Notes: generated by a model not told the origin, from the letters alone. 8,137 bases of DNA from a virus (IMGVR_UViG_2690316233_000001); one strand, 5' to 3'. Counted from the stretch's first letter, positions 917 to 6,333 are shown. Translations and numbers: made by a program.

Positions 917-1698
917 GCTGCCACCTTCTGCTCTGCGGCTTTCTGTTTCAGGAATCCAAGAGCTTTCACTGCTTCGGCCTGTGTCAGTTCTGACGATGCG
1001 CGAATGTCGCGGCGAAATATCTGGGAACAGAGCGGCAATAAGTCGTCATCCCATGTTTTATCCAGGGCGATCAGCAGAGTGTTAATCTCCTGCATGGTTT
1101 CATCGTTTACCGGAGTGATGTCGCGTTCCGGCTGGCGTTCTGCAGTGTATGCGGTATTTTCGACAATGCGCTCGGCTTCATCCTTGTCATAGATACCAGC
1201 AAATCCGAAGGCCAGGCGGGCACACTGAATCATGGCTTTATGCCGTAACATCCGTTTGGGATGCGACTGCCACGGCCCCGTGATTTCTCTGCCTTCGCGG
1301 GTTTTGAATGGTTCGCGGCGGCATTCATCCATCCATTCGGTAACGCAGATCGGATGATTACGGTCCTTGCGGTAAATACGGCATGTGCAGGATTCGTTGT
1401 CCTGTTCAAAGTCCATGCCATCAAACTGCTGGTTTTCATTGATGATGCGGGACCAGCCATCAACGCCCACTACCGGAACGATGCCATTCTGCTTATCAGG
1501 AAAGGCGTAAATTTCTTTCGTCCACGGATTAAGGCCGTACTGGTTGGCAACGATCAGTAATGCGATGAACTGCGCATCGCTGGCATCACCTTTAAATGCC
1601 GTCTGGCGAAGAGTGGTGATCAGTTCCTGTGGGTCGACAGAATCCATGCCGACACGTTCAGCCAGCTTCCCAGCCAGCGTTGCGAGTGCTGTACTCAT
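913..1698 (-). CDS. bet: Red beta single-strand annealing protein
   Basis: 261-aa ORF ([59 protein letters not shown]...) matches lambda Bet in sequence and length; position between gam and exo is conserved. Confidence 0.96.
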
Positions 1699-1703
1699 CC
1701 GTT

Positions 1704-2120
1704 TTATACCTCTGAATCAATATCAACCTGATGGTGAGCAATGGTTTCAACCATGTACCGGATGTGTTCTGCCATGCGCTCCTGAAACTCAACATCGTCA
1801 TCAAACGCACGGGTAATGGCTTTTTTGCTGGCCCCGTGGCGTTGCAAATGATCGATGCATAGCGATTCAAACAGGTGCTGGGGCAGGCCTTTTTCCATGT
1901 CGTCTGCCAGTTCTGCCTCTTTCTCTTCACGGGCGATCTGCTGGTAGTGACGCGCCCAGCTCTGAGCCTCAAGACGATCCTGAATGTAATAAGCGTTCAT
2001 GGCCGAACTCCTGAAATAGCTGTGAAAATATCGCCCGCGAAATGCCGGGCTGATTAGGAAAACAGGAAAGGGGGTTAGTGAATGCTTTTGCTTGATCTCA
2101 GTTTCAGTATTAATATCCAT
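1704..2120 (-). CDS. gam: Gam, RecBCD inhibitor (long 138-aa form; the internal Met at MNAYYIQ, nt 2000, would give the short form)
   Basis: 138-aa ORF ([55 protein letters not shown]...) matches lambda Gam; 5' end overlaps kil as in lambda. Confidence 0.94.
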
Positions 2121-2218
2121 TTTTTATAAGCGTCGACGGCCTCACGAAACATCTTTTCATCGCCAATAAAAGTGGCAATAGTGAATTTTGTCTGGATAGC
2201 CATAAGTTTTTTATCCAT
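2075..2218 (-). CDS. kil: Kil, host cell-division (FtsZ) inhibitor, 47 aa
   Basis: Internal Met of track ORF 2075..2344 gives [47 protein letters not shown], same length and position as lambda kil. The upstream part of the track ORF is cIII read out of frame, so the 47-aa form is the real gene. Confidence 0.8.
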
Positions 2219-2351
2219 TTTTGGGGACTCCTGGCTGATTAAGTATGTCGATAAGGCGTTTCCATCCGTCACGTAATTTACGGGTGATTCGTTCAAGTAA
2301 AGATTCGGAAGGGCAGCCAGCAACAGGCCACCCTGCAATGGCATATTGCAT
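2211..2351 (-). CDS. cIII: CIII, FtsH (HflB) protease inhibitor that stabilises CII; 46-aa variant
   Basis: Hand translation of the minus strand from the ATG at 2351 gives [46 protein letters not shown] then TAA. This matches lambda CIII through residue 46; lambda continues 8 more residues as I recall. Overlaps the kil start by 8 nt. Not in the ORF track, presumably because it is under the length cutoff. Confidence 0.8.
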   Translation of the reverse strand: MQYAIAGWPVAGCPSESLLERITRKLRDGWKRLIDILNQPGVPKNG

Positions 2352-2423
2352 GGTGTGCTCCTTATTTATACATAACGAAAAACGCCTCGAGTGAAGCGTA
2401 ATTGGTATGCGGTAACGCCGCGC

Positions 2424-2792
2424 TCAGGCGGCTTTGATAGTCATATCATCTGGATCAAATATTCCTGATGTATCGATATCGGTAATTCTTATTCCTTCGC
2501 TACCATCCATTGGAGGCCATCCTTCCTGACCATTTCCATCATTCCAGTCGAACTCACACACAACACCATATGCATTTAAGTCGCTTGAAATTGCTATAAG
2601 CAGAGCATGTTGCGCCAGCATGATTAATACAGCATTTAATACAGAGCCGTGTTTATTGAGTCGGTATTCAGAGTCTGACCAGAAATTATTAATCTGGTGA
2701 AGTTTTTCCTCTGTCATTACGTCATGGTCGATTTCAATTTCCATTGATGCTTTCCAGTCGCAATCAATGATGTATTTTTTGATGTTTGACAT
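2424..2792 (-). CDS. ea10: Ea10 (lambda early-left protein, putative ssDNA-binding protein)
   Basis: 122-aa ORF (MSNIKKYIIDCDWKASMEIEIDHDVMTEEKLHQINNFWSDSEYRLNKHGSV...) matches lambda Ea10 as I recall it, in the same position between cIII and ral. Confidence 0.85.
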   Translation of the reverse strand: MSNIKKYIIDCDWKASMEIEIDHDVMTEEKLHQINNFWSDSEYRLNKHGSVLNAVLIMLAQHALLIAISSDLNAYGVVCEFDWNDGNGQEGWPPMDGSEGIRITDIDTSGIFDPDDMTIKAA

Positions 2793-2801
2793 CTATTCAT
2801 A

Positions 2802-2828
2802 TCCTCATAGATAAAAAATCGCCCTCAC
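2802..2828 (-). terminator. Intrinsic-terminator-like hairpin (tL2-like) between ral and ea10
   Basis: Stem GCCCTC (2811-2816) / GAGGGC (2823-2828) with a 6-nt loop; on the minus strand the hairpin is followed by a U-run (plus-strand AAAAAA at 2803-2808). Confidence 0.5.
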
Positions 2829-2974
2829 ACTGGAGGGCAAAGAAGATTTCCAATAATCAGAACAAGTCGGCTCCTGTTTAGTTACGAGCGACATTGCTCC
2901 GTGTATTCACTCGTTGGAATGAATACACAGTGCAGTGTTTATTCTGTTATTTATGCCAAAAATAAAGGTCACTA

Positions 2975-3175
2975 TCAGGCAGCTTTGTTGTTCTGTTTAC
3001 CAAGTTCTCTGGCAATCATTGCCGTCGTTCGTATTGCCCATTTATCGACATATTTCCCATCTTCCATTACAGGAAACATTTCTTCAGGCTTAACCATGCA
3101 TTCCGATTGCAGCTTGCATCCATTGCATCGCTTGAATTGTCCACACCATTGATTTTTATCAATAGTCGTAGTCAT
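2975..3175 (-). CDS. ral: Ral, restriction-alleviation protein (modulates host EcoK type I R-M)
   Basis: 66-aa ORF MTTTIDKNQWCGQFKRCNGCKLQSECMVKPEEMFPVMEDGKYVDKWAIRTTAMIARELGKQNNKAA matches lambda Ral. Confidence 0.9.
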   Translation of the reverse strand: MTTTIDKNQWCGQFKRCNGCKLQSECMVKPEEMFPVMEDGKYVDKWAIRTTAMIARELGKQNNKAA

Positions 3176-3245
3176 ACGGATAGTCCTGGTATTGTTCCAT
3201 CACATCCTGAGGATGCTCTTCGAACTCTTCAAATTCTTCTTCCAT
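3159..3245 (-). CDS. orf28-like small ORF (28 aa, acidic) upstream of ral
   Basis: Hand translation from the ATG at 3245: MEEEFEEFEEHPQDVMEQYQDYPYDYDY then stop. Same position and length as lambda orf28; overlaps the ral start. Whether it is translated is unknown. Confidence 0.45.
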   Translation of the reverse strand: MEEEFEEFEEHPQDVMEQYQDYPYDYDY

Positions 3246-3445
3246 ATATCACCTCAAATAAGTTGTTTGCTGCGAAAGTAAATACGCTTAAGTTACCTGT
3301 TATTTATCCCACCAAGTTCCGTATCTATCTATCCAGTTACACCAATCATCGACACTCCATTTTGTTGTGTCGCATTTTTGCAACTGGCATGAATATCTAC
3401 CTTCTTTGTAAAGTCGGCGTTTGACTTTCTTGAGCATGGCTCACC

Positions 3446-3700
3446 TCAATCGTAATAAGCTGGAATTGATTTTCCGCGTTGCTTCTGGCAGCGAAGGCTT
3501 CCGAGTGATATTGCTTTTTCAGAAAGGCTTAAACGTTTTCTCGGGGCTTCCTGAACAGGTTCCTCACTGTCTGTGCCGAAGATCGAATCGATGATGTTGC
3601 ATATAGCATCACGCTCGATAGCCAGCTTTCTGCGCCGCTCATGACGGCGAGTTTTGGCATTTCCTGCAAATGTTGATTTCCCGTACACGATTACCGTCAT
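3446..3700 (-). CDS. N: N-family transcription antiterminator, P22 gene-24-type (arginine-rich motif at N-terminus)
   Basis: Track ORF 3446..3784; the internal Met at 3700 gives MTVIVYGKSTFAGNAKTRRHERRRKLAIERD..., which resembles the P22 gp24 N-terminus and arginine-rich motif as I recall it. A strong Shine-Dalgarno GAGGAA lies 6 nt upstream of this ATG. The C-terminus (...QKQRGKSIPAYYD) resembles the lambda N C-terminus (...GKSIPLI). The upstream 28 in-frame codons have no RBS and are probably not translated. Confidence 0.8.
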   Translation of the reverse strand: MTVIVYGKSTFAGNAKTRRHERRRKLAIERDAICNIIDSIFGTDSEEPVQEAPRKRLSLSEKAISLGSLRCQKQRGKSIPAYYD

Positions 3701-3819
3701 GATGTTTTCCTCATGTGAAATGGCTTTGGGGGTGATGTGCCAGATGCTGATCTTCTGGTTGCTGTCGTTGCAGCTGCAATTCACATCACCGCCAAATCCA
3801 TCTCGTTTGGTATCTGTTT

Positions 3820-3853
3820 GCGCTTTGTCAGCGCCCCATCGAAGTTAAAGAGC
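3820..3853 (-). promoter_or_regulatory. nutL site: boxA-like (3845-3853) and boxB hairpin (3820-3834), P22 type
   Basis: Minus strand reads GGCTCTTTAACTTCGATGGGGCGCTGACAAAGCGCAAAC. GCTCTTTAA fits the boxA consensus CGCTCTTTA with one mismatch; GCGCTGACAAAGCGC is a perfect 5-bp stem with a 5-nt loop and is the P22 nutL boxB sequence as I recall it. Lies between the presumed pL and the N start. Confidence 0.75.
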
Positions 3854-3859
3854 CTGCCA

Positions 3860-4010
3860 ATCTGTTCCGTTTGGCTGCCAGCATCCTGCTGACGGCGATA
3901 ATAATGAACTAATGGTTCGATATTATCAAGAACTGCAAGTACGAGATTTTGCAACTCTTTAATTTTATTAGATAAGTTTTTGATATGTAATGAAATTTAT
4001 TTTTGCAAAG
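3860..4010 (-). promoter_or_regulatory. pL promoter / OL operator region (exact -35/-10 not resolved)
   Basis: AT-rich region upstream of nutL and N. Contains TTGCAA hexamers (3948-3953 and about 4004-4009) and an ACTGCAAGTACGA motif (3932-3944) that also occurs in the cI-cro intergenic region. I could not find a -35/-10 pair with canonical spacing. Confidence 0.45.
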
Positions 4011-4120
4011 ATTGAAGATTGGTCTGTAGGGGAGAAAGGACTGTATTGCTGGCGTGTTAGTTCGTGGGTTAGCACATATGCGGATGTTAAATAGGGGAGG
4101 CGAACGTGAGGTAAAGAAAA

Positions 4121-4143
4121 CCCGGCGCAGAGGCCGGGTTTTT
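4121..4143. terminator. Bidirectional rho-independent terminator (tImm-like) between the repressor operon and pL
   Basis: Stem CCCGGC (4121-4126) / GCCGGG (4133-4138) with loop GCAGAG. Followed by TTTTT on the plus strand (4139-4143) and preceded by AAAA (4117-4120), which gives a U-tract on the minus strand, directly after the stop of the 258-aa gene at 4144. Confidence 0.7.
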
Positions 4144-4920
4144 CTAGGCTACCAGAGAGTCAATCCAAGAGTCTCTGGTATGGAATGGCAACACTCGTGC
4201 GGTATCATTAAATAGTAGTGATAGTTGCTGTAGCTCAGGTGTTAACCCATCGCTGTCAACTATTACAAATCTATTGTTTATGTCAGGAACGACCTGACTT
4301 AAGTCAACAATCTTCCCAACTGTTGAGTGGGCAGTATTCCATCCTTTACTGCTGGCAAGGCTTACCGTAAACCCGCGTTTTGGTGGTATTAGTCGAGACT
4401 CATTCCTTAGCGTTAACGGAACAGTAATGTTATGCCCACTAATACCTTTCACTTTTTCCTTTAAGGCTAGTCGCTTCCCAAGCCCTGCTGATTTTAAGTA
4501 ACTGATTACACATTTTTCGAACTTATCGTCTTTGACCTCAGCATACCAATCAGCAGTTTGGGCGGATGCAAGAATCCCACCACGAATAACATTTGCAGTT
4601 ACCTGTCCAACGGACGACTCATCTGCCCACGCAGATATCTCTCCAGAGTCATTTAATGAAATTCCTTGCGAAGCGAGTGATGACCTGATCAGATCAATTT
4701 TCTTTTTAGTCAGGTGGATGCCGCGTGATTCAATATTCATCAATGTATCGCAGTAGTCTGTAACCCTATACTGACCACTCATCTCTTGAACGAATACGCT
4801 TATCTGCTCACAATCATCGTAGTATGTGAAGGGACTAATAACGCGCAGCAACGTGTCGCTCATTGGGTGGCATTCAAACCCGAGCTTAGATATGACTGTT
4901 GAACACGTTACATTTCCCAT
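4144..4920 (-). CDS. Hypothetical protein, 258 aa; distal gene of a two-gene module downstream of cI; candidate exclusion/defence protein
   Basis: Long uninterrupted ORF (MGNVTCSTVISKLGFECHPMSDTLLRV...RDSWIDSLVA). Its start overlaps the 3' end of the upstream 180-aa ORF by 13 nt, suggesting translational coupling. No long hydrophobic segments, so probably soluble. I recognise no family. The start codon is uncertain: weak RBS, and Met20 at 4863 is an alternative. Confidence 0.65.
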   Translation of the reverse strand: MGNVTCSTVISKLGFECHPMSDTLLRVISPFTYYDDCEQISVFVQEMSGQYRVTDYCDTLMNIESRGIHLTKKKIDLIRSSLASQGISLNDSGEISAWADESSVGQVTANVIRGGILASAQTADWYAEVKDDKFEKCVISYLKSAGLGKRLALKEKVKGISGHNITVPLTLRNESRLIPPKRGFTVSLASSKGWNTAHSTVGKIVDLSQVVPDINNRFVIVDSDGLTPELQQLSLLFNDTARVLPFHTRDSWIDSLVA

Positions 4921-5450
4921 GATAGCTGACCTGATTTATCTTGATTCGGTAAAGGTGGGCTGCCTTCATATATGATATTAAGCGCCTCGCAAAAATAATT
5001 CCAGTAGCCAAAAAAATCATCTGGCTTGATGTTCGTTTCAAGCTTGAGTGCAATTTCTTCCCCAGCTGATTCGAAGTACATGTGATAGTGAGGACCTCGA
5101 GCCACCTCAACAAAATCTGGATGGTGCACTATAGATTTATTACGGTGTGACTTGTTATGCGCAGGGTACGGGTCAAGCGCGTAAATGCGCCTGTCATGAA
5201 GAAACATCACAAATGAAAGCTTCACTATATCCACCCCTTCAACGATAGGAGAACGCCAGTGAAGCATAAATCTTATGCCTGTGATTGGGTTGCCAATTTC
5301 ATCAAAAGCTTTGAGATCCAATTTAAACCAGATTGGGGTTCGTCCCTCACTTCCGGTCCACGAAACTCCGCTAAAAGTTACTTTTTTCAAGCGAGTAATA
5401 GCTTGGTCAACCTCTTTCTGGGTAGGCTTAAAGTCGCCTTTTTTAGCCAC
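4908..5450 (-). CDS. Hypothetical protein, 180 aa; proximal gene of the two-gene module downstream of cI; candidate exclusion/defence protein
   Basis: ORF (MAKKGDFKPTQKEVDQAITRLKK...IVHHPDFVEVARGPHYHMYFES...SGQLSWEM). The start codon at 5450 is GTG, with a GGTGA Shine-Dalgarno-like sequence about 9 nt upstream and an in-frame stop at 5460-5462 that bounds the N-terminus. Contains a histidine-rich stretch (HHPDF...HYHMYF). No long hydrophobic segments. I recognise no family. Confidence 0.6.
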   Translation of the reverse strand: MAKKGDFKPTQKEVDQAITRLKKVTFSGVSWTGSEGRTPIWFKLDLKAFDEIGNPITGIRFMLHWRSPIVEGVDIVKLSFVMFLHDRRIYALDPYPAHNKSHRNKSIVHHPDFVEVARGPHYHMYFESAGEEIALKLETNIKPDDFFGYWNYFCEALNIIYEGSPPLPNQDKSGQLSWEM

Positions 5451-5547
5451 TGATTCGTATCACCATGAAAGTTATTGTTAATACCTATGCTTCTTGTCAC
5501 CCAAACGTCTCTTCAGGCCATTGGTTACCAGCTATGTGACGATGAAG

Positions 5548-6255
5548 TCACGAACTTTTAATCCATTCCCTTGCCTCGATGTCATCTAGGTGGCGAGATT
5601 GCTTCAAAATACCAGCCACATACTCCACCTTTGCTACTTGATGATAAGGCAACGTTATTGGCCTGTGGTCTTGATTGATGCTTGTAAATTGGTATTCTCC
5701 GTCTCTGTCATAGCCAAGAACCTTGATCATGTTGTGCCCTTCAATGGTTCTGACAAACACTTCATCACCTGGGAATACTTTGGTGTTAGGCTCAATGAGT
5801 ACATATTCTCCTGATTTAATTCTGGGCCACATGCTGTCTCCTTTTACACGAAGACCAAAGGCATCTGGATCATCGCTATAAATCTTGAGCCACCCATCGC
5901 GCTCTTCGGTCATCTCGATGGCACCATCAACACCAAGAATTGCCTCACCAACCACGCGCACTAACCCTTTTTTTAATTTGCCAACAATTGAAAAAGTATC
6001 TTCATCATTCGCTCCATTTAACGAAGTGCCGTGCTGAAGCCAAACAACATCAACGTTTAGAAATTTCGCAAGCGCATTCATTTTTTCCTGGCGTGGTAAA
6101 GACTCAGCATTAAACCATTTGCTAACGCCTTTGGACGAAAGAGAAAGGGCACGGGCTATGGCCATTCCCCTACCATGTTCATCAAGACCAGCTTCTTTAC
6201 AGGCTTGCGCTAGCCGCTGGGCGAATTCTTTGCGCACTTTTTCATTCTGAACCAT
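5548..6255 (-). CDS. cI: CI-type prophage repressor (N-terminal HTH, C-terminal S24/LexA-like autopeptidase domain)
   Basis: 235-aa ORF with a helix-turn-helix region (RLAQACKEAGLDEHGRGMAIARALSLSSKGVSKWFNAE) and a C-terminal VKGDSMWP...IKVLG region typical of LexA/CI self-cleaving repressors (Ser in GDSM, Lys downstream). Divergently oriented to cro. Not the lambda, 434 or P22 c2 sequence. Confidence 0.9.
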   Translation of the reverse strand: MVQNEKVRKEFAQRLAQACKEAGLDEHGRGMAIARALSLSSKGVSKWFNAESLPRQEKMNALAKFLNVDVVWLQHGTSLNGANDEDTFSIVGKLKKGLVRVVGEAILGVDGAIEMTEERDGWLKIYSDDPDAFGLRVKGDSMWPRIKSGEYVLIEPNTKVFPGDEVFVRTIEGHNMIKVLGYDRDGEYQFTSINQDHRPITLPYHQVAKVEYVAGILKQSRHLDDIEAREWIKSS

Positions 6256-6333
6256 GAGTACGATACTAAAGCACTTGCAAAAACTTTCAGTTCAATCATA
6301 ATGCGTACTGAAAGTACGAAAAAGGGTATTCCT
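6256..6333. promoter_or_regulatory. OR region: pR promoter (-35 TTGCAA 6274-6279, -10 CATAAT 6297-6302, 17-bp spacer), pRM, and operator repeats
   Basis: The pR hexamers are near consensus with a 17-bp spacer and point into cro. A 15-bp imperfect palindrome CGTACTGAAAGTACG (6304-6318) lies just downstream of the pR -10. The heptamer AGTACGA recurs at 6257-6263, 6313-6319 and in OL at 3938-3944. On the minus strand a -10-like TAGTAT (6263-6268) ends 7 nt before the cI ATG with no SD, suggesting a leaderless cI mRNA as for lambda pRM. Confidence 0.6.

Follow-up and report, generated by a model that had tools for sequence, protein, structure and literature searches.

What do the two genes behind the repressor of a lambda-like Escherichia coli prophage do? 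The question is raised by an 8,137-nt stretch of viral DNA (IMGVR_UViG_2690316233_000001), referred to here at its full length as the window. It covers the early region of the prophage, in the order exo, bet, gam, kil/cIII, ral, N, the gene pair, cI, cro, cII and O. The pair consists of gene A (5450-4908, minus strand; GTG start, 180 amino acids) and gene B (4920-4144, minus strand; ATG start, 258 amino acids), which share 13 nt (4908-4920, minus strand; ATGGGAAATGTAA). On balance, we regard A and B as probably forming a two-protein anti-phage defence system that prophages carry as accessory cargo and express in the lysogen. This reading is built on where the module sits, its behaviour as a cassette, the strict pairing of the two genes, two computational predictors and a nuclease-type fold.

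A swappable cassette in the repressor-distal slot

The A-B module is accessory prophage cargo, as a reading made from the sequence alone (hereafter the sequence-only reading) had proposed. Among 5,426 complete E. coli genomes, 615 carry the window cI (96-99% identical) and 61 carry the module (at least 95% identity). A module with 98.6% DNA identity is also found behind a repressor that is unrelated to the window cI; loci that combine the module with a different repressor share positions 4092/4106-5523 of the window at that identity. Where the same cI is followed by other cargo, homology breaks off at 5485-5522 and resumes at 4138-4139. The BLAST breakpoints delimit an exchangeable cassette of about 1.38 kb (4140-5522, minus strand), which comprises A, B and their leader. 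These breakpoints are sharp, and we conclude that the cassette is exchanged as a unit with two borders, the 3' end of cI and a terminator that forms its downstream junction and is common to prophages with other cargo. We found no near-identical DNA among sequenced phages.

The module had also been judged by eye to be more AT-rich than its flanks, which the base counts contradict. Its GC content (0.435) is close to that of its neighbours cI (0.448), cro (0.418) and the ral region (0.398), and is clearly lower only than that of exo/bet (0.52). Base composition was therefore rejected as evidence of horizontal transfer.

The repressor-distal slot is a proven defence hotspot. One prophage that has only the C-terminal part of the window cI in common fills it with a HigB-like gene, an Xre gene and a third gene; this cargo matches PD-lambda-2 A (E = 2.5e-42) and B (3.8e-50), and experiments have validated PD-lambda-2 as a defence system (10.1101/2022.05.12.491691). 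Behind a 96%-identical cI, E. coli O157:H7 FRIK944 has a three-gene cargo (1530-3440, minus strand): a DUF3024 protein (PDC-S43, E = 4e-41), a 153-residue hypothetical protein and a Ser/Thr kinase (PD-T4-6, E = 1e-37; also mad6). In E. coli SCU-482 (NZ_CP053247.1), where cI is 98.7% identical, the slot (2472-3371, minus strand) holds one 299-residue hypothetical protein, WP_000076840.1. The synteny check suggested with the sequence-only reading, which looked for the same cI with different cargo in related prophages, thus turned up PD-lambda-2, a PD-T4-6-like kinase with PDC-S43, and a 299-residue protein.

Two side observations concern this slot. WP_000076840.1 is itself a further uncharacterised candidate cargo. 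At one other locus (L055), a 113-residue protein lies directly upstream of the A-B pair; it equals the FRIK944 DUF3024 protein in size.

The paired proteins and their families

A and B are strictly paired. A homologue of A lies immediately upstream of a homologue of B in 85 of 85 loci, and where the junction was read in annotated phage loci it is an overlap of 1-13 nt or a gap of 3 nt, four such loci ranging from 4 nt of overlap to a 3-nt gap. A repressor gene precedes A, usually at a distance of 39-106 nt, and these repressors fall into at least 15 unrelated types (helix-turn-helix, HTH, plus S24, or short HTH). The order repressor-A-B recurs in E. coli phage ev207, Pseudomonas phage phPA-G, Burkholderia phage phi644-2, Burkholderia prophages, a Helicobacter pametensis prophage and metagenomic contigs, a breadth drawn from IMG/VR, phage records and contig look-ups. 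In Pseudomonas phage VB_PaD_phPA-G (PP083311.1), the A homologue (3483-4004, plus strand) has the H-x-H motif and overlaps the DUF1828 gene by 4 nt; the GenBank record has no gene annotated at these positions.

The pairing extends to remote members, at about 20% identity, in which B is partnered by a bona fide DUF6978 protein of Pfam. In one of these settings the gene order is HTH repressor, ImmA-type peptidase, DUF6978, DUF1828/1829, integrase. In a metagenome-assembled genome of Burkholderiaceae (JBARWC010000198.1; 3014-3958, plus strand), genes for a TM2-domain protein and a VasI-like protein stand between the S24 repressor and A-B. Several cargo genes can thus be stacked in one repressor operon.

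Both gene models are sound. Two overlapping minus-strand open reading frames, encoding 180 (GTG start) and 258 amino acids with a 13-nt overlap, had been proposed; the coordinates match, and strain AMSHJX01 has a 100%-identical copy in which RefSeq/PGAP annotates both genes alike, naming B a 'DUF1828 domain-containing protein'. The GTG start of A is supported by the MAK N-terminus, which distant homologues retain. For gene A, the ratio of nonsynonymous to synonymous divergence (dN/dS) is 0.06-0.09 at a dS of about 1.1; for gene B, dN is 0.05-0.07 and dS is saturated. Judged by these substitution rates, A and B are genes under strong purifying selection. The overlap sequence ATCATGGGAAATGTAA is unchanged among homologues with saturated synonymous divergence, and the 13-nt overlap suggests that the two genes are translationally coupled.

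A is a divergent DUF6978 protein (phrog_2017). Pfam DUF6978 (PF22398) matches only its C-terminal 60 residues, at 21.1 bits against a gathering cut-off of 29.6 (E = 4e-4); precomputed PF22398 matches are present in some close homologues. The bona fide DUF6978 genes directly upstream of remote B homologues keep K22, R88, SH102xN, GPH121xH123 and FCxxxN158. A has the invariant signature SHxN...GPHxH...FCxxxN. Seven polar residues, the triad H102/H121/H123 among them, are invariant at about 20% identity. The His-rich stretch noticed in the sequence-only reading as a possible metal-binding or catalytic motif is therefore partly upheld: H121-x-H123 (H121-Y-H123 in the window, codons at 5082-5090) and H102 are conserved, and HHPDF belongs to a lineage-specific insertion. 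A is beta-rich, and its constellation of His, Asp, Lys, Arg and Asn resembles a metal or catalytic site. No structural relative of A was found.

B (phrog_1960, E = 6e-119) belongs to a small family: 1.84 billion representatives include 213 clusters of it (50% identity), and nearly all members are about 250 residues long. Pfam DUF1828 (PF08861) matches B at 40.9 bits (threshold 22; residues 30-112), and it matches 77 of 89 representatives of the family. Structure prediction (AlphaFold2; pLDDT 82, pTM 0.68) and a fold search with the model point to two domains, which resemble type III secretion chaperone/YbjN-like proteins and restriction-endonuclease-like nucleases; the matches were allotted to the two halves by the order of secondary-structure elements, not by residue-level equivalences. 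The N-terminal domain (4546-4920, minus strand; about residues 1-125) would be the DUF1828 part with the chaperone/YbjN-like fold, and it carries the family-wide residues D36 and D55. The C-terminal domain (4147-4533, minus strand; about residues 130-258) would be a divergent DUF1829 with a PD-(D/E)xK-like fold. The nuclease matches are Can2 (10.5), NgoMIV (9.3), PspGI (9.2), BsoBI, Cfr10I and NucC, and the modelled C-terminal core runs alpha-beta-beta-beta-alpha-beta, which is the PD-(D/E)xK core fold.

Sequence profiles give a more graded picture of this second domain. The Pfam DUF1829 profile (PF08862, clan PDDEXK) does not match window B. It does match homologues that align over their full length, namely phi644-2 gp47 (8e-5) and the H. 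pametensis protein (1.4e-6), and 7 of 89 representatives of the B family (best E 1.4e-20), and the result of the fold search is in line with these matches. When four alignments were run as sequence profiles against the PDB, no chain gave a meaningful match.

The conserved residues of B are not those of a canonical nuclease. Across 111 representatives, D55 is invariant, D/E206 is present in 100%, S/T161 in 97% and G159 in 96%; D36 and G162 are conserved at 87% or above. Window B has P168 (codon at about 4417-4419) and F184 where canonical PD-(D/E)xK enzymes have D (beta2) and K (beta3), and it retains H163 (codon at about 4432-4434), K203 and D206. Because the canonical catalytic residues are absent, we do not file window B as an active PD-(D/E)xK nuclease. 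Within the family, D/E168 occurs in only 25 of the 111 and K184/185 in 5. Three representatives have both H163 and D168, 22 have D168 only, 62 have H163 only and 24 have neither; members without D168 almost always have H163, usually together with K203 (Fisher p = 8e-8, with no correction for phylogeny). This pattern suggests that the swap of D168 for H163 is an active-site migration.

The family has already been catalogued as a defence candidate. Against PADLOC (E <= 1), the window proteins match PDC-M24A (A, 1.5e-3) and PDC-M24B (B, 6e-7, over the N-terminal domain only) and nothing else. PDC-M24B is matched by 7 of 7 diverse B members (best 4.5e-13), and the best PDC-M24A match among A members is 4e-6. 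The two PDC-M24 hidden Markov models are about 146 and about 255 residues long, in the same order as A and then B. PDC-M24 and the window pair are thus, by these profile matches, most likely members of one superfamily, DUF6978 + DUF1828-DUF1829. DefensePredictor gives WP_000968518.1/WP_000968517.1 log-odds of 5.6 and 6.3 and the label 'Predicted novel defense gene' (PMC13092281). These are ev207-type DUF1828 proteins of 250 residues, about 51% identical to window B, and the ev207-type B likewise has an A partner and the repressor slot in the lambdoid phages ev207, ev017 and PhiR63_2. The exact window B protein was not found among the DefensePredictor entries listed. The same source describes DUF1829 as newly implicated in defence, which refers to HipAD, a different system (PMC13092281). 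Our literature search found no functional paper on DUF1828, DUF6978 or PDC-M24. The families and their candidate defence status are therefore catalogued already, and the anti-phage role of A-B is a prediction. The earlier impression that neither protein belongs to a recognisable family does not survive: B passes the DUF1828 threshold, both proteins fall into PHROG families (phrog_1960 and phrog_2017), A is DUF6978-like, and PDC-M24 and DefensePredictor cover the pair.

Expression and surroundings of the cassette

The layout of the locus is consistent with expression in the lysogen. The cI-type repressor (5548-6255, minus strand; Pfam HTH_3 + Peptidase_S24, annotated in RefSeq as S24 family peptidase) would be the first gene of a lysogenic operon. 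It is followed by a 97-nt spacer (5451-5547, minus strand), which has a Shine-Dalgarno-like GGTGA at 5460-5464 and contains the upstream junction of the cassette at about 5485-5523. On the minus strand of this spacer, a consensus scan for promoters and terminators was negative, and A-B is for this reason presumably co-transcribed with cI. Since the arrangement copies lambda PRM-cI-rexA-rexB-t-imm, the pair is also presumably expressed in lysogens.

An intrinsic terminator lies directly 3' of the B stop codon (4143-4113, minus strand; AAAAA-CCCGGC-CTCTGC-GCCGGG-TTTTCTTT). It is composed of an A-run (4139-4143), a 6-bp GC stem (4138-4133/4126-4121) and the U-run TTTTCTTT (4113-4120), and by this composition it could act in both directions. 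A terminator had been proposed at this place, and folding bears it out (-21.4 kcal/mol, z = -4.3; 0 of 200 shuffles as stable); a simple terminator scan did not pick up the 4113-4143 hairpin. By analogy with lambda t-imm, the terminator would close the cI-A-B unit.

Beyond it lies the probable OL/pL region (3900-4010, minus strand), with TTGCAAAA words and promoter-like sites at 3991-3962 and 3929-3901, and then N (3446-3784), downstream of A-B. The probable OL/pL places the module inside the immunity region. A-B thus sits between cI and OL/pL with its own terminator, which agrees with the rexAB-equivalent slot of the sequence-only reading. The 8-mer TTGCAAAA occurs four times in the window against 0.94 expected (3376-3383, 3947-3954 and 4001-4008, minus strand; 6275-6282, plus strand). 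Three of the four copies fall within the presumed OL and OR regions, the fourth being that at 3376-3383, and the word is probably part of an operator half-site of cI.

Two further features complete the picture. A hairpin without a U-tract (GTGAC-TTCATC-GTCAC, 5535-5552) spans the cI stop codon just outside the upstream junction of the cassette; conserved recombination or the processing of RNA may take place there. An Rfam match to Lambda_thermo, the cIII thermoregulator RNA (2306-2364, minus strand; 88.5 bits), identifies a lambda-type cIII leader and hence a lambda-like prophage.

Possible functions and known systems

The defence reading can be set out as a sequence of steps. In the lysogen, a transcript from PRM/PRE would run through cI, A and B to the terminator, and the pair would be expressed as the last part of the repressor operon. 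The 13-nt overlap would yield A and B in coupled amounts, probably as one complex. B would join a chaperone-like, protein-binding domain (DUF1828) to a domain of restriction-endonuclease fold (DUF1829), and the former is a plausible protein sensor, with A or a phage product as its target. One partner would hold its counterpart in check until a phage product is detected, possibly through binding by the chaperone-like domain of B. A nucleic-acid-directed activity, residing in the remodelled nuclease-fold domain of B or in the His-rich site of A, would then be released, and the infection would be aborted or blocked. The lysogen would in this way be protected against superinfecting phages. We infer the anti-phage function from the location of the module and from the two computational predictors; complex formation, the identity of the effector and transcription with cI are put forward in the same conditional sense.

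A bolder version holds that the mechanism is new. A would be a metalloprotein of novel fold with a His triad, and B, with its chaperone-like and nuclease folds and a migrated site at H163/K203/D206, would act with it to sense a phage protein and to destroy or block phage nucleic acid, unlike any characterised defence family. We consider this version possible and put it forward tentatively.

Several observations weigh against the defence reading. The canonical catalytic residues are absent from window B, whose nuclease activity may be lost. The DUF6978 and PADLOC matches of A are weak (21.1 against 29.6 bits; E = 1.5e-3), and PDC-M24 is only a candidate system. The ev207-type B homologue is absent from the units screened with DefensePredictor (Table S6, PMC13092281), and we found no experiment on the A-B system in the accessible literature. 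Finally, a PADLOC search with the 299-residue cargo of SCU-482 gave no match; a gene in the slot may thus lack any defence match, and location is no proof of function.

The best-surviving rival reverses the parts within the pair. A (DUF6978) would be the enzymatic effector, and B a dead nuclease-fold sensor, regulator or antitoxin-like partner, in parallel with HipAD, where a DUF1829-containing protein is partnered with a HipA kinase toxin. The seven invariant polar residues of A, including H102/H121/H123, fit such a role, as do the loss of D168 and K184 from B of the window clade and the resemblance of the N-terminal domain of B to effector-binding chaperones. Furthermore, the DUF3037+DUF1829 protein of DS-6/HipAD is predicted to bind its toxin and DNA (PMC13092281). 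Yet B keeps D/E206, S/T161, G159 and H163 with K203, and the H163-for-D168 pattern looks like migration rather than decay. We therefore give the reversed assignment a minor share of the probability, though one large enough to be taken seriously.

The remaining rivals fit less well: the module does not depend on the type of repressor, other cargo takes its place behind the same cI, and the features of the proteins point in another direction. It is improbable that A-B serves to stabilise the prophage as a toxin-antitoxin-like addiction module and has no direct anti-phage role. A mobile element with two small, overlapping genes under common regulation would suit this role; systems derived from toxin-antitoxin modules do occupy the same slot (HigB-like PD-lambda-2), and one remote homologue adjoins a gene with a SocA_Panacea antitoxin domain. 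However, Pfam and NCBIfam show no HTH and no known toxin or antitoxin domain in A or B, and proteins of 180 and 258 residues exceed typical type II pairs. Because the known toxin-antitoxin-like systems of the slot do defend, this rival and the defence reading overlap and are not mutually exclusive.

We hold it to be very improbable that the pair is a regulatory accessory of the lysogeny switch, acting on repressor cleavage, induction or establishment. Its invariable linkage to many repressor types in several bacterial lineages could be read in that way. Against this, a module with 98.6% identical DNA accompanies a repressor that has no relationship to the window cI, about 90% of genomes with the window cI do without the module, A is at some loci separated from the repressor by further genes, and Pfam finds no DNA-binding or protease-related domain in either protein. 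The slightest chance of all falls to lysogenic-conversion cargo of other benefit to the host (stress, metabolism or competition) and unrelated to phages, for although the morons of lysogen-expressed slots are functionally diverse and one alternative cargo lacks a defence annotation, the nuclease fold, the PADLOC and DefensePredictor signals and the pattern of neighbouring cargo point to defence, and A and B have no metabolic, secretion or membrane features.

If the defence reading is correct, A-B would be a widespread and compact (1.4 kb) two-gene defence system in the repressor operons of temperate phages of several Proteobacteria. The hosts concerned would be E. coli, Pseudomonas, Burkholderia and Helicobacter, together with those of remote members in ImmA-type, integrase-linked lysogeny modules. 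DUF6978, DUF1828 and DUF1829 would each gain a function. The mapped junctions, at the 3' end of cI and at the shared terminator, show the swapping of immune cargo among lambdoid prophages and offer a simple recipe for mining the slot for further systems. The apparent swap of D168 for H163 in B is a testable case of active-site migration.

Among known systems, lambda RexA/RexB is the closest in layout: two genes 3' of cI on the same strand, in the immunity region, upstream of OL/pL and closed by a terminator. RexB is a polytopic membrane protein. A and B, in contrast, look soluble, and their folds are different. Kyte-Doolittle hydropathy, averaged over 19 residues, peaks at 1.22 in A and at 0.79 in B, neither protein shows a transmembrane segment by this measure, and the solubility expected in the sequence-only reading thus agrees with the profile. 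The absence of a resemblance to RexA or RexB, likewise expected there, also stands: no homology of A or B to these proteins was found in Pfam, in NCBIfam or in PADLOC (E <= 1; the presence of Rex models in the PADLOC copy is unconfirmed). RexAB homology was rejected as an explanation, PDC-M24 being the only PADLOC match and a membrane segment being absent.

HipAD/DS-6 is comparable in its parts, since a DUF1829 (PDDEXK-clan) domain is found in one component of this validated two-gene defence system (PMC13092281). It differs from A-B in having a HipA-like kinase as the partner rather than DUF6978, and an N-terminal DUF3037 rather than DUF1828. The nucleases of the NgoMIV/Cfr10I type, Can2/Card1 and NucC differ from window B, in which P168 and F184 take the places of D and K and which has no CARF or other ligand-sensor domain.

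The slot itself supplies the remaining comparisons. The 933W-type Stk kinase (PD-T4-6-like) and PD-lambda-2 occupy the same repressor-distal position and exclude phages, while their proteins and mechanisms are unrelated to A-B. BstA of P22-like phages, also unrelated to A-B, is reported to be a phage-excluding occupant of the slot (PMC8585504). Thus, it is credible that A-B is a member of this class of repressor-operon defence cargo, with a mechanism that is possibly new.

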